Virus record (IMG/VR): IMGVR_UViG_3300045988_180522
Length of the DNA stretch: 64,000 nucleotides
Reading direction: 5' to 3' (one strand)
Source: a virus
The notes under the pieces: generated by a model
Seen by the model: the letters and a program-made list of their open reading frames with translations, nothing else
The model's database searches: none
What the model was told of the DNA's origin: nothing
Made by a program: the position numbers and the translations under genes
Shown here: piece by piece, positions 2 through 61,706 of the stretch
Layout: each line of letters starts with the position of its first letter
How positions within the stretch are numbered: the stretch's first letter is position 1

Positions 2-2389
2 TTTAGTGAGGACTCCTTTGAGATGCAGGTGTATGATCATATCATGGATAACTATGATATATATCATACAAAATATGTTGATGCCGTAAAATACAATGAT
101 AACCTGTCGCCGAAGGAAAATGGTACTGATGCCAGGAATAACAGGATCATAGAACTGATGTGGGGTATACTTACGAATCCTGAGACAGCATTTAAGATGT
201 TAAATCCGCAAGGATTTGATAAGATCAAGGAGGCTGCAAGGGTAGCTGTCCTGCTTAAGACAGGAATAAGCCGTGAAGCTCTGAGAAAAGAACTGGGGAA
301 TGATCTTGTCTCAGGACTGAAAAACCTGAGTGTCAGAGAGCTGGATAACATGGTAGAGAAATATAAGATTCCGTATGATCCTTTAAGCCCTCTGACACAG
401 ATAGAGTTCCATAAGAATAATATGACAGGTCTCGGAATGGTTGGGATATATGCAAATCATAATACCCATCATGCCATATCACAATTCACAGATGTGTCTC
501 TGAATCCTGTGAATGGGGCCTTTCCTCTGTTAGGACATACTCTCACATCATTACACAGTCAGAAAGCTTTGGATGGTACCTATATAAGCAGGAATGTGTC
601 AGGATTTCTGGCTGCTTCTGTGGATAATGCTAAGGACCCTGTCCTGGAGGATTTAAATCAGAATACTTTTACATCTGATGCTTCCATGCTGTTATCAAGG
701 CTCGGATACTCAGCATTTCAGGTATCACTGATAATGAATCAGCCTATAGTCAGGGAAATGGCTGATGAATATATCAGGGCCTCCAGGACCGGGGAGGGAC
801 GCATGGATGTAGTAAACAGGATCAGCAATGACTGGATAAAGAGTGCTGACATAAAGAATCCTTCGAAGCTGAATATCAGTGATATTACAGAGGAAGAACT
901 AATATACAATATTATGCAGTCGGTTCTTCCTGCTGATAAAAGATCTGCTTCATATGTAAGGAAACAGGCAGAATTTTCTAAGCTGTTCTCAAAGATAATG
1001 AATACTGCTGAGGCCCTTGGAATGCTTGTAAGGGCTTCAAGATCAGACACACAGTCAGGAAGTGCCGGACCTTATATTGCTGATACCGAGATAAAGCTGA
1101 GAAATATTACATTACTCAGGGAGAAGATAGACTCAGGAAAATTTCCTCTTGATAACGCTGACTTTCTTAAAGATATACCAGTACTGGATGAAGATTCTTT
1201 AAGAAGAGATATACTGAACAGTAAAGTACCTATATTGCAGGCATTTTATACTCTCGGGATATTCAGTACAGGTAATATACTGTCAAGATATATGCCTCAC
1301 CATCAGGATAATTTCAGGCAGGTTGTAAACAGTGTCGAATCCATGACTAAGACAGGGAGACTGAATAAGAAGACCCTGAAAACATTATATTCGGATCTGT
1401 TTACCTATATAATGAGTAAGACAGAGTTCTTTAATGAAAAATACAGAAAGGACTTTATCATGAACTTTCCTAACAGATTCAGTAATATAGTCAGTTCTGA
1501 TCCTGAGATAGGTAATCTGGGATTTATAAAAGCTCTGAAGACAGATAAACCCTTTGAGAATTCAGATCTGTCAGTTCTTGGTATCTCCGGTGTAGGCAGG
1601 CTTAATACTACTATGAAAGAGAATTTTTCACGGGACTGGGCCAACCTTCTTTATATGAATAATCCTTCTGCCAACAGACTTGCCCTTGATCTGTTCAGGT
1701 ATGGTTATTTCAGGGGAGGATTCGGGTTCAGTCCTTCATCTTATATGCATCTGGCTCCTGTGGTACTTATAGAGAATATCCCCGGGTATATAGAGGCAGA
1801 GAGAGGGATTCTGGGATCTGAAGATGATTATTCTGCGTTTGTTACCCAGTTTGTCCGCAACCATCTGTCCAATAAGCTGCTGGTTCCTCAGACACTGGAG
1901 GGAAATATAAAATTCACCGATAATAAGGGGGAATTCCTTAATACTGTACCCCTCAATACCAGGGATAAGATTACAGGAGATGATATGGGTATGGTGAAGG
2001 AGATAATCAGGGATAAAAATAAGGTCAGGTATATATTCATGGACTTCATATCCAAGGAAAATAGTTCAGGTGATATAGCCTACTACAAACTGTCTGGTGA
2101 TGGTACATCCTATGACCGTATACAGCCACTGGGAGCAGATGGTATGTTCCCTGAGTACTCCTATGGAATAAATGGGGAAGTAATGTCTTCAACTGTTTCT
2201 GAAATAGCCGACCTCCTGGACCTGAACAATTCGGAATATCAGGAAGATATGGATGACAGGAACTATAATCCATTATCCCAGCCGGAGGAAACCTATGAGA
2301 AAGTGTTACAGACAGAGAATAACAGATCTGAAATCATGAGATATGAACCAGTTGAGGTAATTACTTCAGATAATAAAAAGTTGTGTTAA
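2..2389 (+). CDS. large hypothetical protein, 5-prime partial (frame open to window start); by position likely virion/tail-associated
   Basis: ORF track 23..2389 with in-frame sense codons back to nt 2; no recognisable catalytic motif. Confidence 0.55.
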   Translation, partial: FSEDSFEMQVYDHIMDNYDIYHTKYVDAVKYNDNLSPKENGTDARNNRIIELMWGILTNPETAFKMLNPQGFDKIKEAARVAVLLKTGISREALRKELGNDLVSGLKNLSVRELDNMVEKYKIPYDPLSPLTQIEFHKNNMTGLGMVGIYANHNTHHAISQFTDVSLNPVNGAFPLLGHTLTSLHSQKALDGTYISRNVSGFLAASVDNAKDPVLEDLNQNTFTSDASMLLSRLGYSAFQVSLIMNQPIVREMADEYIRASRTGEGRMDVVNRISNDWIKSADIKNPSKLNISDITEEELIYNIMQSVLPADKRSASYVRKQAEFSKLFSKIMNTAEALGMLVRASRSDTQSGSAGPYIADTEIKLRNITLLREKIDSGKFPLDNADFLKDIPVLDEDSLRRDILNSKVPILQAFYTLGIFSTGNILSRYMPHHQDNFRQVVNSVESMTKTGRLNKKTLKTLYSDLFTYIMSKTEFFNEKYRKDFIMNFPNRFSNIVSSDPEIGNLGFIKALKTDKPFENSDLSVLGISGVGRLNTTMKENFSRDWANLLYMNNPSANRLALDLFRYGYFRGGFGFSPSSYMHLAPVVLIENIPGYIEAERGILGSEDDYSAFVTQFVRNHLSNKLLVPQTLEGNIKFTDNKGEFLNTVPLNTRDKITGDDMGMVKEIIRDKNKVRYIFMDFISKENSSGDIAYYKLSGDGTSYDRIQPLGADGMFPEYSYGINGEVMSSTVSEIADLLDLNNSEYQEDMDDRNYNPLSQPEETYEKVLQTENNRSEIMRYEPVEVITSDNKKLC

Positions 2390-2390
2390 T

Positions 2391-5300
2391 ATGGCTTTAA
2401 GTTGTGCAATAATCCCGACTATCAAGGATAGTACAGGGAAAGAAAGAGAAAGTACATTATTTAAGGATCTGTTGAAGTATACAGGCTATAACAGGCCTGT
2501 TACGAAGGATATATACAGCCGGGTAAAAAATCCGGCTTTCACAGAAGATACAAAATCTGTACTCAGTTTTGATGATCTGGGGGAACCTACCATATCCTCA
2601 CTGTATGAGAAAGCAGGATTGGATAAGCTTCTGGATAAAGGAGCCGTAATGAAGGAAATGAAAAGGGGCCTGGAGGCTGTGGATTCAGAAGGAAGGGAGA
2701 GAGAATTTGAAAGAAGGGAATATGATTCACTGATAAGAAGGGTAAATAAATTTAACAGGGAAAATCCTTTCAGAAGGGATTATGTGGCCGATGTTATGCC
2801 TGTAGAAGGAGGAACTCTGAAAATTACTGTAGAACCCAGAACAGAGCAGAATAAAGACAGGGAAGCAATTCTTGGGTATGATGAAGCCCTTAATAACAGA
2901 CTGAGGGATATTATGGCGGAAGCAGGGGTTACATATGGGACCCTTACAGAACTTGAAGAGAGAAGAGGATTAACAGGTATTACTGATTTCAGTGTTGCAA
3001 GAGATGCTGCCACAGGAATAGCAGAATTGATAAGAATTGCCAGAGGAGAAAAGGGACAGGCCGCATTACCTGAGGAATTTGCACACTTTGCACTGGCTGC
3101 ATTAGGAAACAATCCACTGGCTGTGAGACTTATAAACCTGTCTTCTGATCCTGATATACAGAAAAGTGTATTCGGAGACCAGTTTGATAATTACAGGACA
3201 GTCTATAAAAATGACAGTAGTATGATGGCTAAGGAGGCAGCCGGGAAATTACTGGCAAAACATCTCCTTAAGGGAGAAAAAACTGAAGGCCCGTATAAAT
3301 CTCTTATAGACCGTGTTATAAGTGCTGTAAAGAATTTATTCAGTAAGATCACTTCTTCAAAGATAGAACAGGCCATCATTGAAGCTGACAGGGAAGCAGG
3401 AGCTTTGGCAGGGAAAATCCTTACAGGAGAAATGAATAAGGAGATGAAACTGGAGAATATATCAGAAAGCAGTCAGTTCTACTCTCTGTCCGAAAAGGTG
3501 GATAAGGAGATTCCTGTAATCCAGAGAATTATAAACAGTGAGATTAAAAGACTTGCTATATATAAGAGGAGAAATCCCAATGACAAGCTTACGAGGGACC
3601 AGCTGTTACTTATAGATAACCTTGAAAGGTCAAGGGATGCCCATATGGAAAAGAAAGGTATTTTCCTGTTTATGAAGAATGCTTTAAACTACATGAAAGA
3701 AGCTGATAAGGCCCTTAATGACCTGAACAGGGACAGTACTCTTACTACGAAGGATAAAGCATCAGGACTGAGAGATCTGAGGGAAACTATCAGTTCCTAT
3801 AACACGCTGATACAATATATACAGGATGATATCTCTCAGGAAGAGATAGGAGGAGAAGAGGCGGAGTATACCAGTGAGATGAAAGCTTATATAAATGAGC
3901 TGTCAGGGATTTCCGGTAAGGTATTCTCTAAATACAGAAAAATGGCTATAGCCTTGTTTACTGAAACTATGAGACCCGTTATAGGTGATAAGATAGTAGT
4001 CCCTATAGGAAAGTTCAGGGATAGGGAGTACACTCTTGAAGAGCTGATAGCTTCTTCTGACTCAGATATATCAGTATTCAGCAGATGGCTTGACAGTATG
4101 GCAGATAGCTCTGACATTATACATCAGGGAATAGACCGTATAGTAAAGAGACAGAGGGACAAAGCCAGAAAGAAGACTATTGAGTACCAGAAGGAGCTTG
4201 TCAGGGAGGGACTTATACTGGAACAATCCGGAACTAAGGGATTTGATTTCATGTTCAAGAAGGATAAGAATGGTAATCTCACAGGAAAGTATATTACAGA
4301 GGCAGATCAGGATAAGTATTCAGAGGCTAAAAAGAAAATGTATTCCAGCCTTCATGAGAAGTATAAGGAGACCCGGTTCGGAATAAATAAAAAAGCTTAC
4401 TGGGATGAAGTGAATGCCTGGTATGACCAGAATACTGACATAGTAGGGGATACAAGAGTTCCTAAATTATCCATATATGGTGATCCGGACTTTAAGAAAA
4501 TGACTGCTCCGCAGAGAAGATTTTATGATAAGGTAATGGAGATAAAAGCAGATCTTGACAGCATGCTTCCTGAAGGAGTGACCAGTATAGATAATGCTGT
4601 TCAGATACGTAAGGATCTTGTGGAAAGGATACAAAATGCTTCAGGGGTAAAAGGAGGGGTCCGGGAGGTGGTAAAAAGTATCAAGGATTCTTTTGTCTCC
4701 CGTGTTGATGACACTGGCTTCTCCAGGACCCTTATTGATTCAGGAGGAAACGAGATACAGGAATTACCTATATATTATGTCAGTAAACTTGAAGATCCTT
4801 CACAGATATCTACAGATGTGGTATCCACACTGTCTGCATATGCTTCTATGGCTCTGGATTATAATTATATGGGAGAGATACTGGACGAGATAGAAATAGG
4901 AAGGGATGTACTGTATGAAAGGGAAATACAGCAGACAAAAGGAGGTAATCCTGTAATGGAATCATTCAGATCTGCCGGAAGGGAAGTGGTAAATAAACTG
5001 ACAAAAAGGGGCCGGGGGGTGACTAATTTCACAGGAAGGCTGGACGACTATTTCCAGATGCAGGTATATGGAAAATATATGAATGATGAGGGGGACGTAC
5101 TGGGAGTAAGCCTTGCTAAGCTGGCCAACAATATAAACAGGTATACATCTGCAAATAATCTCGGACTTAACCTGCTTGCAGGTATATCCAATGTTACCAC
5201 AGGATCTGTGATGATGAATATAGAATCCTTTACAGGTGAGTTCTTTGGAGCTAAGGATACAGCTACGGCAGACAGAAAATATATGAAGCTCCTGCCTGAA

Positions 5301-6418: not shown

Positions 6419-7084
6419 TTATTCCTTACTAAGAATTTTAATTTTACAGTCATTCAGTTCTTTACTGAATATGGAAAAGGCCATAGAAATCTCTTTCGGA
6501 TTCATAGACGACACATCCATATCTGCCAGTCTTTTCATTAGCTGTACAGATATGTTTCTTACAGATACTATACATTGATCGTATACAGCATTCATACCTA
6601 TATTTGAGGCCTCCTGGACCCTTTTGGCGTATTCCTGAGTCCTGTTTATTTCCAGTGATGATAACATATAGACCATAGTAATATTGGCCAGTACGTAGGA
6701 CATATGAGGTTTTACCTTGTCCAACTCTCTCTTCACCGAATAGAACAGTACCTTCAAATGTTTTCCGAATTCCTCATCAAAGTGTTCCAGCATATACGGA
6801 GTGTGCCTGTAGGCATATCCCCCCATCAGACTTCTTACTTTCGACCAATACAGACTGACATTGGAAATCATATTACATATATCCATCTTATTTTTCTGAC
6901 GAAAAATGCCGAGGCTTATACATCCTGATTTGATATCAGCTACATAGTTCCCTATTACATCTGCCAGGAACATATTACCATATACATAATTTGTCCGGAT
7001 ATCCTCACTAATAGCATCTGTGGCTTCTTTTATTATCTGAGTAGGTTTCATTTTTAATATCTTCATCAATTTTCCTAATAGCAC
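6419..7084 (-). CDS. hypothetical protein
   Basis: ORF track; last gene of minus block. Confidence 0.55.
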   Translation of the reverse strand: MLLGKLMKILKMKPTQIIKEATDAISEDIRTNYVYGNMFLADVIGNYVADIKSGCISLGIFRQKNKMDICNMISNVSLYWSKVRSLMGGYAYRHTPYMLEHFDEEFGKHLKVLFYSVKRELDKVKPHMSYVLANITMVYMLSSLEINRTQEYAKRVQEASNIGMNAVYDQCIVSVRNISVQLMKRLADMDVSSMNPKEISMAFSIFSKELNDCKIKILSKE

Positions 7085-13497: not shown

Positions 13498-13713
13498 CTC
13501 CCCCGGGCCGGGAGGTGGATAATTTATAGGGAAATCTTTCTACTGAAATTACTGTATAACTTTTATAAATCCATACATAGTAAATAAAAATCCTACTGTA
13601 GAGAGTATTCCTCCCCAGATCTTGAAGAATGAAAAATCATCATAATCCTCATCTGATTTGTAAAAAGTTACCCCTATTATAAATAAAACTACTCCTATTA
13701 ATATTGCCATGAT

Positions 13714-16466: not shown

Positions 16467-16961
16467 ACAGTAGTTCACCGAAAATTTCTCAGCTTCCGAC
16501 TTTCTTTTAAAGTAGTGTCTTACCTTTTTCACCATATCTCTCTCCTCCTGGTCCCTGGGGGACTTCTTTCCGGATCTGTCCTTTGGTATCTCTCTGTACT
16601 TGTTCCAGAATTCCTCTGTAAAGCTTTCTTTCAGCTCACACAGATCATCGAAATCATAGATATGGGCTCTGTGTCCGGTCTTAGGATTTATAATTACATA
16701 TCCCAGTCTCATAACTTCCTCTTTCCTCATATTCTGCCACGCTATAAGCCCTTTGAAACCAGATCTGTACCTGTTATCCAGTTCCTTTGCTCTTTCTTCA
16801 GAGAGACCGAAGTTCTGCATAAGGGTAGTCCATCCTCCCAGATAATTCCACAGGAACTCATACTTCTTTGCTGTATCTCTAAGATCACTGTGATATTTCT
16901 TAATATCTGCCGTGGACAGGCCTTCCAGTTCTTTGAATACCATCCGGCCAGTCAGTGAGTG
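16467..16961 (-). CDS. polA: family A DNA polymerase, exon 2 (fingers, motif B)
   Basis: HSLTGRMVF...RDTAKKYEFLWNYLGG aligns to DIHRATAAEVF...RRSAKAINFGLIYG; GYVIINPKTGHRAHIYDF ~ GYVETLFGRRRYLPDI. Confidence 0.65.
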
Positions 16962-18058: not shown

Positions 18059-19558
18059 ATGCAATCTATCTCCACTTCCTTCCAGGAACTCACTGATCAT
18101 AGCCTCATCCCTTGAAGCATCAGCCATAAGAACAGACTCTTCCCCTTTAACATCCTGTGATATCCACAGCCATCCCTCCCTTGGAATGAAGCATGATCTG
18201 GTTCTTTCATTCTTAGGAAGATTCAAAAGGTTCGGGTCTGTGGAACTGAATCTGGTGGTATCTGTTCCAAGCTGATGATAATTAGTATAGACCCTCCCGG
18301 TCCGGGGGTGGATATTTTCAAGGAATTTAGGCCCGTAAGTACTGACTACTTTCTCCAGTTTCTTGTATTTACAGTAGAGATCTACAATTTTATGGATATA
18401 CCTCTGCGGCTTTATTTTCTTGGCATCACAGGTCTTTTTAAATCCTGTGGGACTATCCTTGTCTTCTACCATAACATCACATCCCAGCTCCTCCAGCAGA
18501 GGGATTACCTGTCCTGAACTGGACCAGTTGATATCACATACATATCTTTCGGATTCATGAAACATATCGTACTGAGGATCCTCATAGATGTACGGATATT
18601 GCGACATTCTCTCATAGGCTATTTTCCTGTATTCCAGATTCCCGTCCTTAACTACCTTGTCCAGATCCGGCCTCCTCTTAAGTCTTTTCCTTTTTACAGG
18701 AACAGTCTTTCCTTTTACTTTCTTTGTCTTGTTGGAATCCTGGACATTGTTTGTAACCCATTCTTTCTGTTCCTCTTTGGACATGGAATAAGGATCGAAA
18801 TAAAGGATTTTCCCCGGAGACGGATGTTCCAGTGAATATTCTATTACAGCCTTATTAAGAGCTTCTACAGACTCCTTAAGATCCCTCATATCATCTTCCG
18901 CCTTCTCCATCCATTTTTCCCGGCTTACAATCACTCCGCACCATTCCATATAAGACAGAGGGGCAATAGTCATTCCTTCTATAGCAGCAGCAGTATACAA
19001 ATCCTGTCTTCTAAGCTCCTCTTCCTGCTTATCAGCTATCATAAGAAGATATTTCACATCATCACATGCATACACTATTACCTCAGGAGTAAGGCCTCTG
19101 GAAGCTATCTCCGTACGTACGGACTTATCCATACTGACTCCTGCATATCTGTGGGCCAGTCCCTGTAAACTTGCTGAAGGATAAGAAGGGTACCCTAGAT
19201 ATATCAGCTGTTCATTCAGGAACAGGTCATACATATTCATAATACATATTCTGTGATTATGCAGGTATTTGGCATCAAACTTACCATTAACTACTATAAA
19301 CTGTATGTCCTCAGATTCCAGCAACTCCTTATATAGTTGTATATCAATAGTATAAGTGTCAACAAGGATTTGTATATCAAAGTTTCCAAACTGTATACAC
19401 CTGATATTCCCTGAATGACAGTCCAGTGAAGTAGTCTCAGTATCGAATCCTATTCTTTTCATACTGCGGAGGATATCCAGGGATTTCTCCACAGACATCC
19501 TCCCGTATTTATCAGAGGTTCCGAACAGGTCAGTATTATTACTTACTACATACCTCAT
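18059..19558 (-). CDS. polA: family A DNA polymerase, exon 1 (3-5 exonuclease domain and palm motif A)
   Basis: Exo I GFDTETTSLD, Exo III YACDDVKYL, RFSSTDPNLLNLP, motif A DVKGEESVLMA...GDRLH. Confidence 0.8.
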
Positions 19559-43418: not shown

Positions 43419-43749
43419 AAAAGGTACTCCTGCACTTGGAGTAAGTAAGAAAATGTCATATGAGCAGATGGCTCAGCAGCTTAATACTGCACAGACTATT
43501 CTGGATCAGCAGGCCGGGCAGTTCCGTGAATTGCAGAACAGATACAATATGGCAGTACGCCGTATTCAGGAACTTGAATACGGGAATGTAGCACTGCGTA
43601 TCAAAACATGTTTTGATGTGCTGGATCATGAATCTCATTTCAGTGTTGACTTTGTAAATGAGTGTGTGAAAGAAATCGAGGAAATTATGACCCCCAAGGC
43701 CCCGGAGGTGGAAGAAGAGGATAAGGAAAATCCGGATGCCGGGGAATAA
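43399..43749 (+). CDS. hypothetical coiled-coil protein
   Basis: ORF track. Confidence 0.45.
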   Translation: MKEEEVKKGTPALGVSKKMSYEQMAQQLNTAQTILDQQAGQFRELQNRYNMAVRRIQELEYGNVALRIKTCFDVLDHESHFSVDFVNECVKEIEEIMTPKAPEVEEEDKENPDAGE

Positions 43750-45326: not shown

Positions 45327-45624
45327 TGATCTCAGAAGGATGTCATTCGGGATCAACAGGTATCTTGATTCTATACGTGACAAAGCAGGGAGCCATGAGG
45401 AGAGCAGGATTTTCCTTGGATTTTCTTCATCTGTTAAAAAGGTGGGAGGGATCTCGCTTGGCAGGGAATATGTTATTTCTGTAATGTATAAGGGCCGGGA
45501 GGTGAGTAATATTATTACCAGGGATATGGATAGTGCTCCGGAACTGCTGGTGGAAAAGTTTATAGAACTCACACATGATGAGGATTTTATAAAGGAGGCT
45601 GTGTATGGGAATAGTGATGAATAA
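45304..45624 (+). CDS. hypothetical protein (positional candidate for small terminase; no motif support)
   Basis: immediately upstream of large terminase, overlapping its start. Confidence 0.4.
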   Translation: MGSVISYDDLRRMSFGINRYLDSIRDKAGSHEESRIFLGFSSSVKKVGGISLGREYVISVMYKGREVSNIITRDMDSAPELLVEKFIELTHDEDFIKEAVYGNSDE

Positions 45625-47878
45625 ATATCAGACCCCTCTTTCTGATGATTTTATGATGTCCCTGAATGAAGAGGTAAGGGACTGGCTGCTGGAAAGCCTT
45701 AATATTCAGTTTATAAAGAATCTGGTATCACCGGACAGGGAATTTGCTAAGGACAGGCCGAGGGACAAGAATGGAAGGATTATTGTAGATCTGTGTAATC
45801 CGCATATCCTGACTGATATGGATTATTTTCAGCCTACAGCAAATTATTACAGGGAACATGGTGTGCTGACAGGATTAAGGCCTAATTCGAACAGGAACTC
45901 AGAATACGGTAAATGGCTTGCTGAAGAGGTTAACAGATGCTGGTATGGGTATGTAAGGCCTAAGGATGGAGAGTGGGTTTCCGGTGATATGTATTTCTAT
46001 CTCAACTATTCTCCTATCATACAGAATATAATGGATGAGGAGACAGGAGTGTTTGACCGTATAATGGATTTCCCGAAGATGTGGGAGCTGATATATCTGA
46101 GGTCCCACTATCATTATCAGGCAAGATTCGGCGGGATATACAATGATTTTAAGAAAGGACAGCATGCCTTTGAGATAGCCAAGCGTGGTGCTTCAAAAAG
46201 TTATTATATGGCATCTATACTTGCCAAGCTTATTATGCTTGGTGAGAACAGGAAGGCCTATAAGAATACCAGAGGGGTTATATATGCCACTGACAAGGAA
46301 AAACTGGTGAAGGACGGGACATTGAATAAATTTCTTGATATACTTGATTTCTGTGCTGAAAATACACAGTTTCCGACACAAAGGGTAGTAGATTCCCTTG
46401 ATAAAATGACGTGGGAGATGGGATATAAGGACCTTGATACTATGTCGAATAAAGGTACTGGTAACACAACCCTTGGTGTTGTAGTAGGGGATAAGTCGGG
46501 TAAAGGGCGTGGTAAGAGGGCTAACAGGCAGATATATGAAGAGATAGGTGAATTCCCGAATCTTCTTGACGTATATACTACCAACAGAAGGTCAGTAGAG
46601 GAAGGAGGTCACTCATTCGGCCAAAGTATTGGAGTAGGTACGGGCGGGTCTAAAGAGGCTAATTTTTCCGGATGTATGGAGATCATCTTCAATCCTGCCG
46701 GGTACAATATATATGGTCTGCCTAATGTATTCGACAAGTCCGGAGGCTCTAAGAAATGTATCCTGTTTATGGGGGCCTATATGAACAGGGCAGGATGTTA
46801 CAATAAGGACGGGGTGTCAGATGTTTCTAAAGCCCTCCTTGAGATCCTTGAGGAAAGGAGAGTCATAAAATACAACTCCTCCAGGTCCTCTACCCTTGAC
46901 CAGGCTATTGCAGAAGACCCTATTACCATACAGGAGGCTATCCTTAAGAAAACTACCTCAGGATATCCTGTAGCTGCCCTTGCTGAGCAGTTACAGAAAA
47001 TAGATACTACAGCAGGATATCTGGATAGCATATATGTAGGAGATCTTGTACAGGATGAGACAGGACAGCCTAAACTGGTTACAGGTCCGGAATATGTCCC
47101 TCTGAGAACCTTTCCTCATAAGGATAACAGACAACCTGGAGCTATAGAATTCCATGCTTTCCCTGTAAAAGGAGCTGATGGTAAAGTAATGAGTAACAGA
47201 TATATAGCCGGAGGAGATACTTTTGACGATGATTCATCAGATACTTTATCATTAGGTAGTATTTATGTACTTGACCTGTTTACTGATGAGATAGTATGTG
47301 AGTATACAGGAAGGGAGGATTTTGCAGACCAGTTCTATGAGAAGTGCAGGCTGATATGCTTATATTACAATGCCAGACTGAACTACGAGAACAATAAGAA
47401 GGGATTATATACATACTTTTCCAAGATGCATTGTATCTATTTGCTTACAGAAGTTCTTGATTATCTTAAAAGTAAAGAGCCTGCAAAGGATCTTCACGGT
47501 AATAAGAGCCGTGGTACACAATCTACTGAACCAGTAAAATCTTACGGCCGTGACAGGATAAAGACATGGTTGTGTGCTCCTGTCCCCAGCCCTGATTCCA
47601 CAGATGAAAACCCCATCTCCAGGCCCCGGCTGTATACCCTGAGATCAAGGGCCCTTATACAGGAACTTATCCAATGGGATCCCAATGGCAACTATGACAG
47701 GCATGATGCATTGCTTATGCTTATGCTGCTGAGGGAGGAGATGCTGAGACTTTCAAAGGGGGATGTAAAAGGAAGATTCAGGGAAAAGGATCCTCTGGAC
47801 AGGTCAGGGGATAAATTTTTCTCCAGATATGATAAGATAGTGGAAGCCAGAAAGAAGCATCAGAAACATATATTGTGA
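45605..47878 (+). CDS. terL: terminase large subunit
   Basis: Walker A-like AKRGASKS, Walker B-like QIYEEIGEF, C-terminal nuclease Asp cluster IAGGDTFDDDSSDT. Confidence 0.7.
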   Translation: MGIVMNKYQTPLSDDFMMSLNEEVRDWLLESLNIQFIKNLVSPDREFAKDRPRDKNGRIIVDLCNPHILTDMDYFQPTANYYREHGVLTGLRPNSNRNSEYGKWLAEEVNRCWYGYVRPKDGEWVSGDMYFYLNYSPIIQNIMDEETGVFDRIMDFPKMWELIYLRSHYHYQARFGGIYNDFKKGQHAFEIAKRGASKSYYMASILAKLIMLGENRKAYKNTRGVIYATDKEKLVKDGTLNKFLDILDFCAENTQFPTQRVVDSLDKMTWEMGYKDLDTMSNKGTGNTTLGVVVGDKSGKGRGKRANRQIYEEIGEFPNLLDVYTTNRRSVEEGGHSFGQSIGVGTGGSKEANFSGCMEIIFNPAGYNIYGLPNVFDKSGGSKKCILFMGAYMNRAGCYNKDGVSDVSKALLEILEERRVIKYNSSRSSTLDQAIAEDPITIQEAILKKTTSGYPVAALAEQLQKIDTTAGYLDSIYVGDLVQDETGQPKLVTGPEYVPLRTFPHKDNRQPGAIEFHAFPVKGADGKVMSNRYIAGGDTFDDDSSDTLSLGSIYVLDLFTDEIVCEYTGREDFADQFYEKCRLICLYYNARLNYENNKKGLYTYFSKMHCIYLLTEVLDYLKSKEPAKDLHGNKSRGTQSTEPVKSYGRDRIKTWLCAPVPSPDSTDENPISRPRLYTLRSRALIQELIQWDPNGNYDRHDALLMLMLLREEMLRLSKGDVKGRFREKDPLDRSGDKFFSRYDKIVEARKKHQKHIL

Positions 47879-47978: not shown

Positions 47979-50345
47979 ATGTATCAACTTAAGAATTTGC
48001 CGCCACAGAAGCTCCCTTATACAAAGAAGACAAAGGAGTGGAGGAAGAAACATTTGGATTGGGCTGACAGGAAGTCATTTTTCAATGACAATTTTGTCCG
48101 CAAGTCCGTGATACATAAAATGATCAATTATGATCTTCTGAGAGGTAATCTGCATATGGGAGACCTTCAGATGATTATAAATCCTGATAATGTAGAGGCT
48201 GCCTATATACCTGAAAAGATACAGCATTATCCTATCATGAATTCAAAGCTTGAGGTATTAAGAGGGGAGGAATATAAGAGAAGATTTGATTTCAGGGTAG
48301 TGGTTACAGATCCTAACTCTATCAGTTTCAGGGAAGATCAGAAGAAAGAAGAGCTTTTCAGTGTCCTTCAGAGCATAATAGCCGATACCTCTGACAATGA
48401 GCAGCAGTTCAATGAAAGGGTCCAGGAGGCCAGTGATTATTATATGCATGAGTGGCAGGACCTCAGGGAAATAAGAGCCAATGCATTACTCAGGCATTAT
48501 TATAAGGAGCTGGAATGTAGGGATAAATTCAATGACGGGATCATGGATGCCATGGCTGTCGGAGAAGAAATATATCAGTGTGAGATAGTATCAGGCGAGC
48601 CTGTGATAAACAGGCTTAATCCTTTAAAGGTAAGGATATTCAGGAATGGATATTCAAACAGGGTAGAGGATGCTGATATGATAGTACTGGAAGACTTCTG
48701 GTCTCCGGGACGTATAATTGATTATTTTTATGATTCGCTGACAGAGGAAGATATAAACTATATAGAGAAAATCCCGTTCTCACCTGTTGAAGGAGACGAT
48801 GATATACAGGGGATAGATGAAAGGGCAGGATTTATGTTCCTTCCTGATGAAGGAGGAGAAGCCTTCGGACAGGGAATAGTGCCTGACTCATCGGTATTCT
48901 TCGGGGAAATACCTGGCAGAAGTTCCATGTATTATGATCTGGCAGGTAATATAAGAGTACTCAGGGTATACTGGAAATCCAGAAGAAAGGTGAAAATGGT
49001 GACATCATTCGATGAGAATGGTGATAAGGTGGTTACCTTCCAGAATGAAGATTATGTCATTTCGGAAGAACTGGGGGAGACAGAGAAGATCTTTTGGATA
49101 AACCAGGCTTGGGGAGGCACCAAGATAGGGAAAAATATATATGTGAATATGGGTCCTCTTCCTATACAGTTTTTTCGTATGTCAAATCCTTCAAGATGTC
49201 ATTTCGGAATCATAGGGACTCTGTATAACCTGAATGATCATTCCCCGTTCTCTATGGTGGATATTATGAAGCCGTTCAACTACTTATATGATGCAGTATA
49301 TGACAGGCTTGTAAAAGCTATATCATCATACTGGGGTACATTGTACGATCTTGACATGGCTCAGGTCCCGGAGGACTGGGATATAGATAAATGGCTGTAT
49401 TTTGCCAAAGTATCCCATATAGCTGTAAAAAATAGCTTCAATGAAGGCTCGAAGGGGGCTGCTACAGGTAAGATCGCTGGTAACTACGCCAATAACAGCA
49501 GGGGTATGATGTCTGCCGGGGATGGTAATTACATACAGCAACTGATCAATATACTGGAATATATCCCTGTCAAGATGTCTGAACTGATAGGTATATCAAG
49601 ACAGAGGGAAGGTCAGATTGATAACAGGGAAACCGTAGGAGGAGTGGAAAGGTCTACCTTACAGTCGTCACATATTACAGAATGGCTGTTTATAAAGCAT
49701 AACAGCCTGAAAAGGAGAGTACTGGAATGCCTTCTTGAACTGGCAAAAGCATGTGCCAGAGGGAGGACACTGAAATTCCCTTATCTGTTATCAGATAATT
49801 CACTGGCCATGTGTGAAATAGACGGGGATGAATTTGCTGAATCAGACTACGGACTGGTAGTGGATACTGACTCTGAAGTACTGGCTCAGAAGCTTGATGC
49901 TTTGGCTGCCAATGCTTTACAGCATAACAGGCTTGATTTTTCAACCATCATGAAAATATACACCTCACAGTCATTGGCTGATACCCAGAGGATGATAGAA
50001 AAGAATGAGAAGGAGGTAAGAGACAGGGAGATGCAGGCACAGAGGGAGGCTAATGAGGTAAGGATGTCAGAGATAGAGAATGAATCAAGGATGCGTGAGG
50101 CAGAACTTGCCCAGAAGCAGGAAGCTAACATACGTGATAATGAGACTAAGATACTTATTGCGGGAATGTCTTCCAATGAACAGGCCTCTCCCGGCCCAGG
50201 ATCTGATGAATTGCTGGAGAAAATAAGGCAGTTCAATGAAAAGATGAAGCTGGACAGAGAGAAACTGGCTCTTGACAAGACTAAGCATGATGATGATATA
50301 GCATTGAGAAAGAAGGAATTATCCTATAAAAATACTAAAAAATGA
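47979..50345 (+). CDS. portal protein (probable)
   Basis: position after TerL, size, long acidic coiled-coil C-terminus. Confidence 0.5.
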   Translation: MYQLKNLPPQKLPYTKKTKEWRKKHLDWADRKSFFNDNFVRKSVIHKMINYDLLRGNLHMGDLQMIINPDNVEAAYIPEKIQHYPIMNSKLEVLRGEEYKRRFDFRVVVTDPNSISFREDQKKEELFSVLQSIIADTSDNEQQFNERVQEASDYYMHEWQDLREIRANALLRHYYKELECRDKFNDGIMDAMAVGEEIYQCEIVSGEPVINRLNPLKVRIFRNGYSNRVEDADMIVLEDFWSPGRIIDYFYDSLTEEDINYIEKIPFSPVEGDDDIQGIDERAGFMFLPDEGGEAFGQGIVPDSSVFFGEIPGRSSMYYDLAGNIRVLRVYWKSRRKVKMVTSFDENGDKVVTFQNEDYVISEELGETEKIFWINQAWGGTKIGKNIYVNMGPLPIQFFRMSNPSRCHFGIIGTLYNLNDHSPFSMVDIMKPFNYLYDAVYDRLVKAISSYWGTLYDLDMAQVPEDWDIDKWLYFAKVSHIAVKNSFNEGSKGAATGKIAGNYANNSRGMMSAGDGNYIQQLINILEYIPVKMSELIGISRQREGQIDNRETVGGVERSTLQSSHITEWLFIKHNSLKRRVLECLLELAKACARGRTLKFPYLLSDNSLAMCEIDGDEFAESDYGLVVDTDSEVLAQKLDALAANALQHNRLDFSTIMKIYTSQSLADTQRMIEKNEKEVRDREMQAQREANEVRMSEIENESRMREAELAQKQEANIRDNETKILIAGMSSNEQASPGPGSDELLEKIRQFNEKMKLDREKLALDKTKHDDDIALRKKELSYKNTKK

Positions 50346-53030: not shown

Positions 53031-56000
53031 ATGGATAAAATCTTACAGCAAATAGGAACGTTTCTAGGAAGAAAATTCAGTAAAATATATACTATTTTCA
53101 ACGATAAGTATAATGAACTGGATAATAAAAAGGTAGACAAGGAGGAAGGTAAGGAGCTGATGCCTTCACCGGAAGGAGCTTCTGATACTGTATTTCTGTC
53201 TGAAACAGGATGGAGAGAAGTGAACACAGATAAGATCAGGACTCATGTCATAAGCATTTCTATTCCTTTTGATTCTGCATGGGATTTTAATGGCGCACAG
53301 GAGATTACCCTGGAAGAAGGTGATTATGACAGGGATGAGGCCGATTCATTTATATATGACTATTTCAGGTATAATAATCCAAATGTAGTAATAAGGAATA
53401 CTAATACTACTACACAGTCTGCTCAAAAAGGTTATCATACTGTATGGAAGGTAGCCCTGGATACCATTGCAGAAGGAAGAGCTTTAAGACTTTATCTGGA
53501 TATTCCTGAGAATCTGAGTTTTACCATGGCTCCTGAAAGAGATAGTGCCAGATTTACAAGATATTGTATTCTCCTCTATCTGTCTCAGGATGAAGGGAAT
53601 CAGACCTATACACTCAATAGTATAGGAATACTTCCGAATGGTACTGACAGTTTCATCCCAAGGAAATACCTGGATGGTAAGTTAAGTGACATTACAAGTT
53701 CTTATCTGCCATTATCCGGAGGATTGATGACTGGTAATATAGCTTTCCCTGATGGTAAGGGACTTGGATCTGCTGTCGGCCAGTCTGATTTACTGGTAAG
53801 GAGCGGGAATATTGTAAAGCTTGGATCTGCCGGATTTTCTGCCAGATTATATGCTGAAAATCCTGTTGTCCGTGAGGGCCAGGAGGGGATGTTTACAATG
53901 TATGACACTTCGAATCTGGATATAGATAAGCCGTTTGTAACTGATCTGTGGGCTGTATATGATGCAGAAGGTAAAAATACCCAGAGTATAGCTGTAGATT
54001 TGTATAATCCTGTTGCTAAGTCAGCGACTAAGGTATACAGGGAATTACTGCCTGTCACTGATACGAATATGGGTCTTATAACTCCCTACTATAAGTCAAC
54101 TTTAGATGGATTAATAGGTCCATCCGGGAATAAATTAAATATTTATGGCACACCTTCTTCTGCGTGGATGATAGGCTCTGTAGGGCCTGTATTGAAGAAT
54201 TCAGGAGGTATATTTGAGCTGCGTAATAATATAGATAATGCCTATACTGACCTTATCCTCAATAATATTACAATTAAGGGTAATGTTACCCAGGAAGGGT
54301 CATCATTCATAACAGAAGCTGAGACTGTAGAAGTATCCGATAATATTCTTCTTTTAAACAGAGGGGAGGTAGGATCCGGGGTTACAAAGGGAATTTCAGG
54401 TATACAGGTAGATCGGGGAGCCCTTACTGATTATCAGTTTATATTCGACGAATCTGATGACAGGTTCAAGGTAGGGGTAGAAGGGGATTTATGGCCTGTG
54501 ATGTTAAGGAACAATGAATCTGATCTTAGTGATAAGTTCTTCCTGTCATGGGATGCTTCCCTTAAAAGAGCAGTAACTACGAATGTTGTTCCTGAAACAG
54601 GGCTTCTCTTTTCAGGTGGAGTAAGTAATCACCCTGAATATGATATTACTGTAGCAGCAACTGGTAGTGGTAGTATTGGATTCGGTGCTTTACAAGCGAA
54701 CACCCCATGGTCATGTACAATAGGATATAATTTAAATACCAGAGATGTGCCAAGTGCTGATATTCTGGACTTTGCCACATCATTGAATGCTTACAGGTAT
54801 GATAAGCCTTCCGTATTAAACATGATATATTTTGATACCTATCTTAGCCCTAACAGTATAGAGCCATACGGAACCAGTAGTATATCACTGACTACAGGAT
54901 CCGGTGATGATCTTATACATACTAAAGGAGGTCAGAATTATATCATCTATGATTCCAGTAATCTGAATATAGAAGAACTAGCTACTAAGGACGACATATC
55001 AGGCTTAGGTACTGTATACTATCCTTATAGTGGCAGAGGTCATATGACTATAGGAGCAGATGGGAGACCTATATTAGCTAATAACCAAGGAATACTATTT
55101 AATACAACATCTGATGCTGTTGAAGGAATATACGTAACTACTAATGGCCATTTAATTATTGGAGGTTCTAAATTTAATAATATTCCTGTAGATATTTATA
55201 ATGACCTGAGTATAGCCAGAATTCTTGACAGAGCTACTAATTTTTCTCTTCTTGTATTCAGTAACGGAGGTACTGAGGATTCACAGTACACTCATATAGG
55301 AGCTGAACACGGAACTACGAGAATAAGATCAGGATTATTTAATTTAGTACATGATAGGGGAGGTACGTTATATACAGTATTTGACGGATATAATTTTTCC
55401 AGGAATCTTGATACTATAAGCATAAATAGTTCATTTAACCATCTTCCAATGATGGCAGCTCAAATAAAAAGTGGTGATGCTACTACTGATAGAGGATATC
55501 CTATACAAGAGGCAGGATCTCTCGTTGTTATTCCGGGAACATATCATGGATCTAGTCAAATTTATGGTACATATAGTACTAATAGGTGGTTTGTGAGAGG
55601 AGGATCTAATTCTTTGGAAGATCCTACAGCACATACATCTTGGAAAGAATTAGCTACTACGAATCATTTGAGTAATTATTTGCCTCTGACTGGTGGTACT
55701 ATGACTGGGAATATAATGTTCCCTACTTCGGAAGTTTATATAGTACAGACTCTTGCATCAACATCAAATTATGGTGCTCCTATTAGATGGATGGTAGGTA
55801 ATGAAACAAGGGCTATGATAGGATATCATACTACAGGAGGAGATGGCACTGCTGGAGCTATAATAATAACTCCTACAAATCCAGGGAGTTCTCCTTGGGA
55901 GAATGGTAATGGGTTATTTTTAGACAGAAATAAGATTTACTTTAATGGACAGGAATTAGCTAAAGTATCTCAAATTCCTTCTACATCTGATTTTTTACCA

Positions 56001-57185
56001 TTATCTGGAGGGACTCTTACTGGAGAGTTAACTGTTCCAAGAATTAACACAGGTCATATAGAAAGTATAGATGGTAATGCTCTACTAACCTACCGTCAAG
56101 CTGGAATTACTGGAGTAACTAATGAACAAGTAGGAGTTGGTACCATAGCAAATCAAATGATACTGCGATCAAATAATACTAATTTAATGCACTACAAAAA
56201 TGGTACACAATATACTATTTTAGATACGTCTAACATAGCATCATTGACTATCCAATTCAACGGATCTACTAATACTACCTATGCTCCTAATGCAGCTAAA
56301 ACTGTAAATATCACTCCTGCTGCTATTGGGGCAGCTGCTTCCAGTCATACACATACAACACTTCAAGGGACTTATACAGGTTCTGGAGGGTCTCAGCCAC
56401 CAAGTTATGTTACAGCAGGAACACTAAGAGCTAATATGATGTATTATAATATGTCCGGAAGTCCTTATTGTGACTGGTTAATGATGGATACATATACCGG
56501 ATCTGATGTGCCTTATGTCACTATGATAGGGGTGACAAAGACTGCAACTCCAAGAGCTTTTATTGCTTCTGGTCCTAAAGGTAATGCAAGTACCAGTTCC
56601 TGGGTAAGAAAAGAACTTGCCACTGTAGATGCTATTCCGACAACTATGGCGTGGGGTAGTATTACAGGAAAACCATCATTTGCTACCGTAGCTACATCCG
56701 GAAGTTATAATGATTTAAGTAACAGGCCTTCTATTCCAAGTGCTGAGACAGCTGCTACTATTATGTCAAAAATTAACTCCCAGTCTGAAATTACTTTCAG
56801 TAAACACGTAGTATGTTCAGCCGGAGCAGGTACTTCTTCTACATCTGATATCAGATTTAAGAACAATATCACCCCCCTGGCCCCTGTATTGTCACATGTT
56901 CTTGGATCACCCGGATTCTTCTATACATGGAAGGATGAGGATGAAGTACTGATAGGGACATCGGCTCAGTATTGGGAAGGCAGGATTACAGAGCTTGTAA
57001 GGGAGATAAATGATGAGGATAAAACCAAAACATTCTCCTATGAGAGATACACTGTTATATTACAGGAAGCTCTTAAAGAGGAACATATGCTAAGAGAAAC
57101 AGAGAAGGAAGAGTATAGAAAAGAGATTTGTTCTCTGAGAGAGGAATTGGAAGATTTGAAAAGACTAATACAGAAACTGTTATGA
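53031..57185 (+). CDS. tail fibre/spike protein with C-terminal intramolecular chaperone (peptidase S74-like) domain
   Basis: three LPLSGG(T/L)(M/L)TG fibre repeats; C-terminal SDIRFKNNITPL...GTSAQYWEG autoproteolytic chaperone signature. Confidence 0.7.
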   Translation: MDKILQQIGTFLGRKFSKIYTIFNDKYNELDNKKVDKEEGKELMPSPEGASDTVFLSETGWREVNTDKIRTHVISISIPFDSAWDFNGAQEITLEEGDYDRDEADSFIYDYFRYNNPNVVIRNTNTTTQSAQKGYHTVWKVALDTIAEGRALRLYLDIPENLSFTMAPERDSARFTRYCILLYLSQDEGNQTYTLNSIGILPNGTDSFIPRKYLDGKLSDITSSYLPLSGGLMTGNIAFPDGKGLGSAVGQSDLLVRSGNIVKLGSAGFSARLYAENPVVREGQEGMFTMYDTSNLDIDKPFVTDLWAVYDAEGKNTQSIAVDLYNPVAKSATKVYRELLPVTDTNMGLITPYYKSTLDGLIGPSGNKLNIYGTPSSAWMIGSVGPVLKNSGGIFELRNNIDNAYTDLILNNITIKGNVTQEGSSFITEAETVEVSDNILLLNRGEVGSGVTKGISGIQVDRGALTDYQFIFDESDDRFKVGVEGDLWPVMLRNNESDLSDKFFLSWDASLKRAVTTNVVPETGLLFSGGVSNHPEYDITVAATGSGSIGFGALQANTPWSCTIGYNLNTRDVPSADILDFATSLNAYRYDKPSVLNMIYFDTYLSPNSIEPYGTSSISLTTGSGDDLIHTKGGQNYIIYDSSNLNIEELATKDDISGLGTVYYPYSGRGHMTIGADGRPILANNQGILFNTTSDAVEGIYVTTNGHLIIGGSKFNNIPVDIYNDLSIARILDRATNFSLLVFSNGGTEDSQYTHIGAEHGTTRIRSGLFNLVHDRGGTLYTVFDGYNFSRNLDTISINSSFNHLPMMAAQIKSGDATTDRGYPIQEAGSLVVIPGTYHGSSQIYGTYSTNRWFVRGGSNSLEDPTAHTSWKELATTNHLSNYLPLTGGTMTGNIMFPTSEVYIVQTLASTSNYGAPIRWMVGNETRAMIGYHTTGGDGTAGAIIITPTNPGSSPWENGNGLFLDRNKIYFNGQELAKVSQIPSTSDFLPLSGGTLTGELTVPRINTGHIESIDGNALLTYRQAGITGVTNEQVGVGTIANQMILRSNNTNLMHYKNGTQYTILDTSNIASLTIQFNGSTNTTYAPNAAKTVNITPAAIGAAASSHTHTTLQGTYTGSGGSQPPSYVTAGTLRANMMYYNMSGSPYCDWLMMDTYTGSDVPYVTMIGVTKTATPRAFIASGPKGNASTSSWVRKELATVDAIPTTMAWGSITGKPSFATVATSGSYNDLSNRPSIPSAETAATIMSKINSQSEITFSKHVVCSAGAGTSSTSDIRFKNNITPLAPVLSHVLGSPGFFYTWKDEDEVLIGTSAQYWEGRITELVREINDEDKTKTFSYERYTVILQEALKEEHMLRETEKEEYRKEICSLREELEDLKRLIQKLL

Positions 57186-60265: not shown

Positions 60266-60488
60266 TACAATAATTGTCAGATGCAGCTGGCATTACCAGC
60301 CTTTCATATCAGAAGTAAGATTACGTGAATTAGCTGGCCTTGAATATCTATGGTAAAAGTATTATATGTAAAAGCTGCCGGATGCAGGAGAAGGGTCCCT
60401 CCTGTCCATACCTGTAAGATAAGGTAGCCACCCAGGGCCAGGAGAGTGGATTTTTAGAAGAAATTGTTTAATTTAAAATTGAAATATT

Positions 60489-60572: not shown

Positions 60573-60575
60573 TAT

Positions 60576-61522: not shown

Positions 61523-61556
61523 GAGTCCGGTAAAAACCGGACTCTATTCTTTTTAT
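61523..61556 (+). terminator. rho-independent terminator
   Basis: gagtccgg-taaaaa-ccggactc then tattctttttat. Confidence 0.6.
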
Positions 61557-61706
61557 ATACCCGGCATCAAGACACCATCGTAACTTCCTCATTATTAAAC
61601 TCCTTCTCCTGGCCCTGGCAATGTTATGTTCAGAAAGTTCCCTGTAGTACATTTGGGTATAGATAGCTATCTGATATAACATTTAATCCTAAAAATTTAT
61701 CCTGTT

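Follow-up and report, generated by a model that had tools for sequence, protein, structure and literature searches.

The 64,000-nucleotide stretch of DNA that we have analysed (IMG/VR record IMGVR_UViG_3300045988_180522; hereafter the window) is identified by its gene content and its divergent gene blocks as that of a crAss-like (Steigviridae-like) phage. It carries genes for the large terminase, the portal, a GroEL-like chaperonin, a split family A DNA polymerase, a primase, helicases, a uracil-DNA glycosylase and a ThiF/JAB pair, together with very large virion-RNA-polymerase-like genes, and the two divergent gene blocks track its GC skew. At the DNA level it is 97% identical to Dulem virus 41, a phage from lemur faeces with a circular genome of 92.9 kb. 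Dispersed over these genes, and over some of the gaps between them, in a genome that is otherwise AT-rich, is a gapped and GC-rich palindromic 11-mer, CCNGGNCCNGG, of which the window holds 15 exact copies.

Our results show that this word is far more frequent than composition allows. Dinucleotide-preserving shuffles gave 0.43 copies on average (with a largest value of 4 in 100 shuffles), a first-order Markov model 0.34 and a gapped-8-mer model applied to both strands 0.76, so that the excess over composition nulls is 20-40-fold. In an unbiased scan, in which every gapped 8-mer was counted under 12 spacing templates, CCNGGNCCNGG was the top motif, with a log10P of about -36 in the window and of about -52 in Dulem virus 41. 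Synonymous-codon shuffling, which preserves each protein sequence and the codon usage, gave 4.2 copies for the whole window, about 4 of which are owed to intergenic and overlap positions that stay unshuffled. When coding sequences only were considered, 12 copies were observed against 1.22 expected, 1.0 of which comes from the lone site in a Pro-Gly-Pro-Gly frame; outside that frame the comparison is 11 genic copies against 0.22, with protein sequence and codon usage held fixed. Copies with one mismatch are also in excess (22, or about 19 independent ones, against 7.5). The constituent pentamer CCNGG occurs 211 times against 168 under synonymous shuffling, and most of its general two-fold excess over base composition can be put down to codons and amino acids; pairs of CCNGG, on the other hand, number 15 at spacing 6 and 0-4 at every other spacing from 7 to 24, so the relevant excess is specific to the composite motif. 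The initial annotation of this DNA had described a strong over-representation, with 14 copies against an expectation of about 0.1, and had placed the signal at the DNA level. The effect is in fact stronger than it claimed: 12 of its 14 coordinates are exact, two need correction (30860 to 30859, and 40690 to 40679) and the copy at 52405 had been missed, while its expectation was somewhat low and the large excess stands. Codon- and dinucleotide-matched backgrounds fail to reproduce the count, and every null model run supports the conclusion that the signal lies in the DNA and is not an artefact of coding or composition.

Twelve of the full copies are genic, on both strands and in all three reading frames (1, 5 and 6), and three are intergenic, which bears out the earlier remark that copies fall in different frames and between genes. 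Since CCN GGN CCN GG reads Pro-Gly-Pro-Gly in one frame, the word could be thought to serve a peptide; similarly, the copy at 13502 can form an 8-bp GC hairpin in its intergenic gap, and ATTTTT follows the copy at 60432, as might be expected of an RNA or structural element (a hairpin, a terminator or a promoter). We consider these possibilities extremely improbable. Only one of the 12 genic copies is in the Pro-Gly-Pro-Gly frame; the outer free positions are complementary in 3 of the 15 copies and the centre would leave a loop of one nucleotide; and about 90% of all sites are genic, in some cases with several in one gene. Hairpins, terminators and hairpin promoters were rejected on the ground that the arms are non-complementary and that 28 one-armed sites, described below, lack a partner arm. 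Promoters were likewise rejected, as the intergenic copies stand at no fixed distance from start codons or from Bacteroides-type -7 elements, and the published crAss-like promoters are unrelated, those of middle and late genes being sigma-70-like tripartite motifs and the early transcripts sharing no motif (bioRxiv 10.1101/2020.03.07.982082). Recoding of TAG, considered for a flank that read '*ASPGPGS' against 'QASPGPGS', was discarded because the standard-code open reading frames (ORFs) are long and intact.

Alignment of the flanks revealed that the 11-mer is the core of a 17-bp palindrome, CCTCC-NGG-N-CCN-GGAGG, which is free at every third base and has CC/GG dinucleotide blocks at each third base pair to either side of a central GGNCC. 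In the unbiased scan its one-armed form, CCNCCNGGNCC, ranked second among the over-represented words. The one-armed word (CCTCCNGGNCC) was found 27 times in the window against 0.75-3.5 expected under two nulls, 18 of these matches being outside any full core, and controls of the same composition but with the order of the blocks changed were not enriched. One of the 18, the CCNCCNGGNCC match at 41879-41889, was excluded as a chance match in the 3' part of a tRNA-Arg(CCT) gene (41818-41891); the anticodon CCT of this tRNA reads AGG, a codon heavily used in the window genome. A survey that took every GGNCC of Dulem virus 41 as a potential centre identified 23 full and 28 one-armed sites, where about 0.5 and about 1 would be expected under independence. 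In total there are 32 sites in the window (Table 1) and 51 in Dulem virus 41, or about one per 2 kb. The one-mismatch variants tell the same story, 14 of the 19 tallied having lost an outer block and retained the centre. Farther out, at 15-19 bp from the dyad, one-armed sites have an AT fraction of 0.89 on the side of the arm, and full sites one of 0.74 on both their sides (P<5e-5); the unarmed side gave 0.64, control GGNCC 0.57 and the genome as a whole 0.60. The whole site is therefore a dyad-symmetric unit of about 40 bp, laid out as AT block, spacer, (CC)-N-CCTCC-N-GG-N-CC-N-GGAGG-N-(GG), spacer and AT block. The initial description of the motif was correct but incomplete: the bias of the flanks toward CTCC on the 5' side and GGAG on the 3' side is confirmed, and the half-sites it quoted are present within 0-9 bases of the positions given, out of a total of 36 (19 CCNGGNCC and 17 GGNCCNGG), but it took the 11-mer for the unit in place of the 17-bp palindrome with AT-rich flanks, omitted the one-armed variants, which about double the number of sites, and did not cover the absence of the motif from the next-nearest relatives. 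The spacing of 2-5 kb it reported is, for the 11-mer alone, only approximate.

Table 1. Coordinates of the full and one-armed sites in the window, with examples of the enriched 9-mer of phage DAC15 and of the longer terminase genes found in relatives
Feature	Sequence	Position	Strand	Context
Full core, left arm CCTCC	CCAGGACCGGG	783..793		virion RNA-polymerase-subunit-like gene 23-2389
Full core, both flanks (CACCTCC...GGAGGTG)	CCCGGGCCGGG	13502..13512		intergenic, between the stop of a small ORF and the next ATG
Full core		18296..18306		family A DNA polymerase gene, over conserved P-x-TGR residues
Full core		22550..22560		uracil-DNA glycosylase gene; encodes SRTW, relatives EDLK/NDLK
Full core		26740..26750		final codons of primase-like gene 26723-27754
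Full core		28809..28819		gene 28654-29061; lost in strain c177824 (CCTGG to CTTGG)
Full core		30859..30869		helicase gene 29786-31012; encodes FPGQE, relatives FVGIE/FIGVE
Full core		32326..32336		SNF2-type helicase gene 31712-32866
Full core		40679..40689		GroEL-like gene 39699-41195
Full core		44992..45002		gene 44766-45326; encodes PRTW, four relatives PPSW/PPLW
Full core		47619..47629		large terminase gene
Full core		50190..50200		portal gene; sole copy read Pro-Gly-Pro-Gly
Full core		52405..52415		gene 51833-53023
Full core		60432..60442		intergenic, 144 bp upstream of gene 60576-60989
Full core		61608..61618		intergenic, about 50 bp past a canonical terminator hairpin, 99 bp before ATG 61707
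One-armed	CCTCCTGGACC	2212..2222	+	
One-armed	CCTCCAGGCCC	2666..2676	-	
One-armed	CCTCCCGGACC	4658..4668	-	
One-armed	CCCCCCGGCCC	5009..5019	-	
One-armed	CCTCCTGGACC	6610..6620	+	
One-armed	CCTCCTGGTCC	16544..16554	+	
One-armed	CCTCCAGGCCC	21612..21622	+	
One-armed	CCTCCAGGACC	26244..26254	+	
One-armed	CCTCCTGGCCC	38406..38416	+	region between two divergent gene blocks
One-armed	CCTCCTGGCCC	40933..40943	-	
One-armed	CCTCCGGGGCC	43698..43708	-	
One-armed	CCTCCCGGCCC	45492..45502	-	
One-armed	CCTCCAGGTCC	46878..46888	+	
One-armed	CCTCCTGGACC	48419..48429	-	
One-armed	CCTCCGGGACC	49364..49374	-	
One-armed	CCTCCTGGCCC	53876..53886	-	
One-armed	CCCCCTGGCCC	56873..56883	+	
DAC15 9-mer	CACCWGAAG	L008:503-511		
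DAC15 9-mer	CACCWGAAG	L008:10060-10068		
DAC15 9-mer	CACCWGAAG	L008:35312-35320		
Longer terminase		L012:6178-9888		
Longer terminase		L013:6414-9896		
Longer terminase		L014:6636-9905		
Longer terminase		L001:1-3360		

The enrichment extends to the close relatives of the window. The 23 full 11-mers of Dulem virus 41 lie at the same loci as in the window, and the motif is also present at these loci in six IMG/VR contigs from one metagenome, each 97.5-98% identical to the window. The portal protein of the window is at most 57% identical to those of named Steigviridae such as DAC15, cr128_1 and the PhiCrAssBcn phages. Among 5.8 billion proteins searched, none had a portal identity between 99% and 76%, and no relative was present in 185,579 species genomes. 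The 76% portal relative (a contig of Logan SRR25477804, here L012) has no copy in 19 kb syntenic to a window stretch with six, and at the homologous codons it often shows one half of the site only; the 11-mer is equally missing from the 65% and 58% relatives, from DAC15 and from cr128_1. A scan of viral contigs for CCTCCNGGNCCNGGAGG yielded, among the matches listed, only single chance hits in unrelated contigs, and our literature searches found no published description of such a motif. The motif is restricted to one species-level lineage.

Other words are enriched in other lineages. In the sister lineage, for which the comparison covers 19 kb (L012:1-19037), the synonymous-shuffle null revealed an excess of TCCNGGAG (15 against 3.3 expected), of TCCNGGA (30 against 11.5) and of CCNGG overall (143 against 92). 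TCCNGGA is a recognition sequence of the PfoI type. Some of these enriched sites of L012 occupy loci that bear the full 11-mer in the window. The genome of Bacteroides phage DAC15 (NC_055832.1; L008 and L009) contains 28 copies, against about 1.7 expected, of a non-palindromic 9-mer, CACCWGAAG, which are mostly genic, are divided equally between the strands relative to the genes and include two pairs in the terminal repeat; this word is nearly absent from the window (1 + 3, each strand counted) and from the other relatives (0-3). The word of DAC15 is unrelated to that of the window, and the word of the sister lineage is related but different. Such turnover between lineages is the pattern expected if a recognition protein and its sites co-evolve.

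Within the genome the sites disregard genes. Five of the 51 sites of Dulem virus 41 (about 10%) lie between genes, and coding sequence makes up about 86% of the genome; sites are present in all gene modules at 0.35-0.94 per kb, and five or six copies lie within single very long genes. Their placement is random with respect to coding. They also disregard the strand: the 28 one-armed sites divide into 12 on the + strand and 16 on the - strand, and a coding-aware null gave 0.06 sense-strand copies of CCNCCNGGNCC where 8 were observed and 0.39 copies of its complement GGNCCNGGNGG where 16 were observed. Since both orientations are enriched over coding-aware nulls, the raw 2:1 preference and the weak flank asymmetry (Fisher test about 0.02 for the central base, not significant for the arms) reflect the permissible frames and not a strand-specific function. 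An element oriented with transcription was rejected accordingly, the bias of left arm and central base being weak, opposite in one-armed sites and attributable, from frame-specific expectations, to coding constraints. Finally, the sites avoid clustering, with a coefficient of variation of the gaps of 0.74 against 0.97 for random placement of the 51 sites (P=0.016), and two gaps below 300 bp where 7.6 were expected.

Dispersed, gene-independent and non-clustered sites at about one per 2 kb are what would be expected of a signal that has to be met early from any double-strand end. Could the motif be a Chi-like site, read by a RecBCD/AddAB-type helicase-nuclease of the host or by the exonuclease and annealing recombination system of the phage? 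Such a site would curb degradation and stimulate recombination from any double-strand end, a palindrome doing so in both directions. The phage has genes for a PD-(D/E)XK exonuclease, a Sak4-like ATPase and a resolvase-like protein, lineage specificity would fit tuning to a particular host enzyme, and the 9-mer of DAC15 is equally frequent in both orientations. Known Chi sites, however, are 5-8-mers, contiguous and asymmetric, which are recognised as single-stranded DNA; they have no free positions and do not require a distant AT flank. The gapped 17-bp palindrome with its flank requirements resembles instead a site bound as a duplex, it is neither contiguous nor asymmetric, and the orientation trend is the weak one explained above by coding constraints; we regard a Chi-like role as improbable.

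Many dispersed, palindromic and lineage-specific copies would also suit a network of operators or stoperators, at which a phage repressor blocks transcription genome-wide, and which could underlie a carrier state. The stoperators of mycobacteriophage L5 (bound by gp71), the conserved inverted repeats of phiC31 and the P1 C1 operators are precedents, and, with the RK2 KorB operators, they provide tens of 13-17-bp sites per 50-95-kb replicon that co-evolve with the cognate DNA-binding protein. These sites concentrate in intergenic and promoter regions, and stoperators are oriented with transcription, whereas the sites described here are random as to genes and strand. In favour of a repressor, a cassette of two genes, one of them for an HTH_17 protein (60931-61275), lies between two of the three intergenic copies, and crAss-like phages persist for long periods without lysogeny (PMC8375218). 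Against it, the intergenic share is no larger than the non-coding fraction, both orientations are enriched, single very long genes hold five or six copies, no integrase or repressor is annotated, and a homologue of the HTH_17 protein occurs in cr128_1, where the motif is absent. A stoperator function is in our opinion decidedly improbable.

Among phages, the nearest documented cases of an enriched word placed regardless of genes are the nick-associated motifs of T5, Pseudomonas phage tf, Rembedalsseter and the phiKMV-like phages. These motifs, of which the one described here might be a further example, mark the places in virion DNA where a nickase of the phage has interrupted one strand. They are the best-documented short words enriched 10-20-fold and located without regard to coding, and the window encodes several homing-type endonucleases. 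As with the window motif, the nick motifs of T5, tf/Rembedalsseter (WACTRTGAC) and the phiKMV-like phages are more than 10-fold enriched, shared by relatives and genic at the frequency set by coding density, 88% of copies being within genes, with conservation across 61 phages (PMC11780129). Unlike it, they are asymmetric, lie mostly on the coding strand and mark physical nicks (PMC11780129). The site described here is a palindrome, so nicking of both strands would break the genome, and the one-armed sites show no strand bias. In T5 and tf the motifs are confined to one physical strand. We therefore find this explanation very improbable, and the Chi-like, stoperator-like and nick-site readings, which share some features with our data, each fail at least one defining feature tested.

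How did the sites arise, and what keeps them? Alignments to relatives are ungapped at the sites, so these were acquired by substitution and not by insertion, and an insertion-type mobile element was rejected since no indels occur there. Several conserved proteins have motif-encoded residues peculiar to this lineage, among them SRPR in the terminase and LRARA in the chaperonin. We compared eight strains, with the window as reference and same-codon-position C/G positions within 150-300 bp as controls; the close relatives, 97-98% identical, come from two sources and the tests rest on few events. At the fixed positions of sites with the one-armed pattern there are 3 polymorphisms where 10.8-12.2 were expected (P=0.002-0.006), and at full sites 2 where 5.2-5.6 were expected, so that fixed positions are 3-4 times less polymorphic than matched local positions. 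In the portal site (50190) both outer N positions vary among strains (CCCGGCCCAGG or CCTGGCCCCGG) and the 8 fixed bases are retained, while locus 49364 has the full core CCAGGTCCCGG in five other strains and TCAGG in the window and one other strain. The sites are thus conserved within the lineage, yet not as far as the sister lineage at 76% identity, and we propose from these comparisons that they are kept by purifying selection. The pentamer CCNGG as a whole also shows a deficit (24 polymorphisms against 43-44 expected, P about 0.001), which is not seen for GGNCC, GGCC or CCGG in the matched test. As a separate observation, CpG positions are polymorphic in 12.3% of cases across the eight strains against 6.1% for other C/G positions, and CpG-containing pentamers are strongly depleted relative to synonymous shuffling (CGNTA, for instance, 102 against 265).

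The behaviour of CCNGG leads to the main rival explanation, in which the motif would not be a binding site. Under a methylation-coupled biased repair like that suggested for the Highly Iterated Palindromes (HIP) of cyanobacteria, a host CCNGG methyltransferase, together with a bias of mismatch repair (by an endonuclease of the very-short-patch type), would ratchet near-matches into palindromes, and the motif would be a mutational by-product or an aid to methylation-directed repair. Such a model was proposed by Elhai for cyanobacterial HIP, for which a variant palindrome with a matching methyltransferase is known (PMC4390886). The window motif is built of the overlapping known methyltransferase specificities CCNGG, GGNCC and CCNGG; CCNGG is under-polymorphic even outside the motif family while GGNCC, GGCC and CCGG are not; CTNGG/CCNAG is depleted (203 against 292 under synonymous shuffling); the four loci that differ in presence between strains all do so by a C/T or G/A change, in three cases at the inner C of CCNGG; and the sister lineage is enriched for another CCNGG-based palindrome, TCCNGGA, and for CCNGG overall. 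Several observations are difficult to reconcile with repair. Searches of the window and of the remainder of Dulem virus 41 turned up no gene for a methyltransferase or a Vsr-like protein; repair acting on pentamers leaves unexplained the preference for spacing 6, the CCTCC arms and the AT block at 15-19 bp; polymorphisms fall equally on the inner and on the outer bases of CCNGG (12 and 12), which is not what repair at a deaminated position would leave; and the sites avoid clustering. The depletion of CTNGG is non-specific, other pentamers deviating equally (ACNGG, for example, by +16 standard deviations), and as many unrelated pentamers deviate as much we rejected it as a diagnostic signature of very-short-patch repair. 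Hypermutability of methylated cytosines at CCNGG was rejected as well, fewer transitions being seen there and not more; that these cytosines are not hypermutable is evidence against heavy 5-methylcytosine deamination. On balance we judge the repair explanation quite unlikely. A role in DNA modification, one of five that the initial annotation had offered unranked, is possible; the phage encodes no methyltransferase. Of those five roles, the anatomy agrees best with binding by a dimeric protein, and poorly with site-specific nicking, given the palindromic form of the site and its lack of strand bias.

We propose, with moderate confidence at most, that the motif is a selected recognition site in double-stranded DNA for a putative, probably dimeric, protein that would act genome-wide. 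A protein reading the duplex is suggested by the dyad symmetry, the sufficiency of one full half-site with the centre, the arm-linked AT-rich flanks about 1.5 helical turns out, the indifference to strand and genes, the selection, the absence of clustering and the turnover between lineages. Each subunit of the dimer would read the half-site CCTCCNGG and bend the AT-rich flank, and one full half-site with the central GGNCC appears sufficient, which would account for the one-armed sites. The sites would have been built in the lineage by point substitutions, including amino-acid replacements, and then held by purifying selection. As they ignore gene boundaries, strand and frame and recur about once per 2 kb, the function would be a chromosome-wide one, such as marking, organising, compacting or protecting the phage DNA or loading onto it, and not the control of a single gene.

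Some of our results weigh against this proposal. Domain searches (Pfam, PHROGs and PADLOC) of about 80 proteins encoded by the window and by Dulem virus 41 gave no candidate binder; the only helix-turn-helix found was the small HTH_17 protein at 60931-61275, which is an improbable binder because its homologue in the motif-free phage cr128_1 shows that it is not lineage-specific. The same products, also in four sequence searches against solved structures, included no methyltransferase, CCGG-family nuclease or ParB-like protein, and no repeat-module proteins are encoded. Helix-turn-helix dimers do not usually recognise sites with so strict a three-base period, in which every third base is free, and the 9-bp motif of the sister lineage has the size of restriction/modification sites and not that of a classical operator. 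The polymorphism deficit depends on few events and the even spacing on one test (P=0.016). CCNGG outside the motif family is also somewhat conserved (22 polymorphisms against 34 expected), which might equally result from repair or modification directed at CCNGG. Finally, presence differs at about 4 of 24 loci among the eight strains, each time by a C/T or G/A change, which indicates that single sites are dispensable.

In its behaviour, the closest analogue of the window motif is the cyanobacterial HIP1 (GCGATCGC), which with other Highly Iterated Palindromes belongs to a group of GC-rich palindromes over-represented 15-300-fold, and whose function has not been resolved after decades (PMC5861425, PMC4390886). 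Both HIP1 and the window motif occur within and between reading frames, are conserved beyond neutral expectation and are non-randomly spaced, both give no evidence of a peptide, RNA or gene-regulatory role, and in both a lineage-specific palindrome can be replaced by another. The over-representation of the window motif is at least 15-fold, it is found in all frames and between genes, and it is conserved beyond neutral expectation within its lineage; the cognate methyltransferase that would complete the likeness was not present among the about 80 products from the window and from Dulem virus 41. In bacterial chromosomes HIP1 takes the form of a contiguous 8-mer, in which known orphan methyltransferase sites are nested. 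The window motif, in contrast, is an 11-17-mer that has gaps, a three-base period and AT-rich flanks; it belongs to a 93-kb phage of virulent type that encodes no methyltransferase, and it is restricted to one species-level lineage.

The chromosome-organising sites of Noc (ATTTCCCGGGAAAT), SlmA and MatP, all palindromes, and the DNA uptake sequences (USS/DUS) are likewise dispersed and often genic, and act through a protein that reads the whole chromosome; USS combine a conserved core with phased AT-rich flanks. These systems belong to host chromosomes, have known binders and are of far lower density than the window motif, and we know of none described for a crAss-like phage. Concerning restriction and modification, CCNGG is the specificity of the Type II enzymes Ecl18kI/SsoII, TCCNGGA that of PfoI and GGNCC that of Sau96I, and enzymes of this family ignore the central base. 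The core of the window motif is made of such pentamers, CCNGG and GGNCC, and the sister motif equals the PfoI site; phages normally avoid restriction targets, whereas the window pentamers are enriched 20-100-fold and extended to 17 bp with no such gene present. What sets the window motif apart from all these systems is the gapped three-base period, the palindromic one-and-a-half-site design, the AT flanks and the crAss-like genome in which it resides, together with the lack of a cognate methyltransferase, of a repressor and of any strand bias. Short palindromes in general are not avoided in the window, with 183 CCGG, 140 GGCC and 250 GATC in 64 kb, compared with 3, 19 and 44 in the 99 kb of DAC15 and no GGCC in 22 kb of a further relative, L013; this contrast suggests a very different restriction environment or a general protection of the DNA.

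Other features of the window genome may be recorded here. A RepL-like protein is encoded at 39131-39646, and small lineage-specific proteins are shared with Dulem virus 41. The family A DNA polymerase gene is split on the - strand into two pieces (18035-19558 and 16431-16967), and LAGLIDADG endonuclease ORFs lie at 17087-17944 and 14491-15249; the separation of the pieces by LAGLIDADG ORFs implies introns or inteins, and the annotation of Dulem virus 41 has four separate 'polymerase/primase' fragments. The large terminase (45605-47878) has 757 amino acids in the window and 1089-1236 in Dulem virus 41 and the 58-76% relatives, where it contains intein/LAGLIDADG domains, a difference that implies a polymorphism in the presence of inteins between near-identical strains. 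A block of low GC content (0.32-0.34) at about 8000-16000 contains extra genes, including that of a radical-SAM protein (10945-11886), has one full motif copy only and is without counterpart in the annotation of Dulem virus 41, which leaves about 11 kb of the window unmatched. Two further words, TACAGGA (60 copies) and ATACAGGAA, show a strong over-representation that falls mostly on the sense strand (at 3422, 20661 and 47305, for example); the excess of TACAGGA looks like a codon or dicodon bias (TAC AGG A) and not like a signal. A canonical terminator hairpin at 61519-61555 (GGAGTCCGGT-AAAA-ACCGGACTC, followed by a T-run) is located downstream of the HTH_17 gene, and a 27-codon ORF (60490-60573) just past the intergenic motif copy at 60432 would encode a very basic peptide, MGRPSTPKGKAGYTPKGRNAGKKKKEK.

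What could such a motif mean for crAss-like phages? About 50 copies are paid for with rare codons and with replacements in the genes of a helicase, the uracil-DNA glycosylase, the terminase and the chaperonin, a cost that implies a strong and recurring benefit at the DNA level. On a wider view, which we advance only as rather unlikely, crAss-like phages may carry lineage-specific 'genome tags', words hundreds-fold above chance that cost protein sequence and are read by a fast-evolving protein of phage or host; three such tags would be CCTCCNGGNCCNGGAGG in this lineage, TCCNGGAG in the sister lineage and CACCWGAAG in DAC15. The reader of a tag could then distinguish, load onto, compact or shield the phage DNA, and in this lineage it would engage CC/GG steps in a three-base register and bend the AT flanks, a mode undescribed for phage proteins. 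If the motif were driven by repair instead, it would be, as far as we could find, the first phage counterpart of the HIP1 phenomenon, in a fully recodable genome. The site and its flanks are sharply defined and usable as bait for the reader, and the different words of close lineages are a natural experiment in the co-evolution of DNA sites with their reader. CrAss-like phages dominate the phages of the mammalian gut, and little is known of how their DNA is recognised, organised and protected; if the proposal is true, the tag would offer a new handle on the chromosome management and the persistence of the most abundant group of gut phages.

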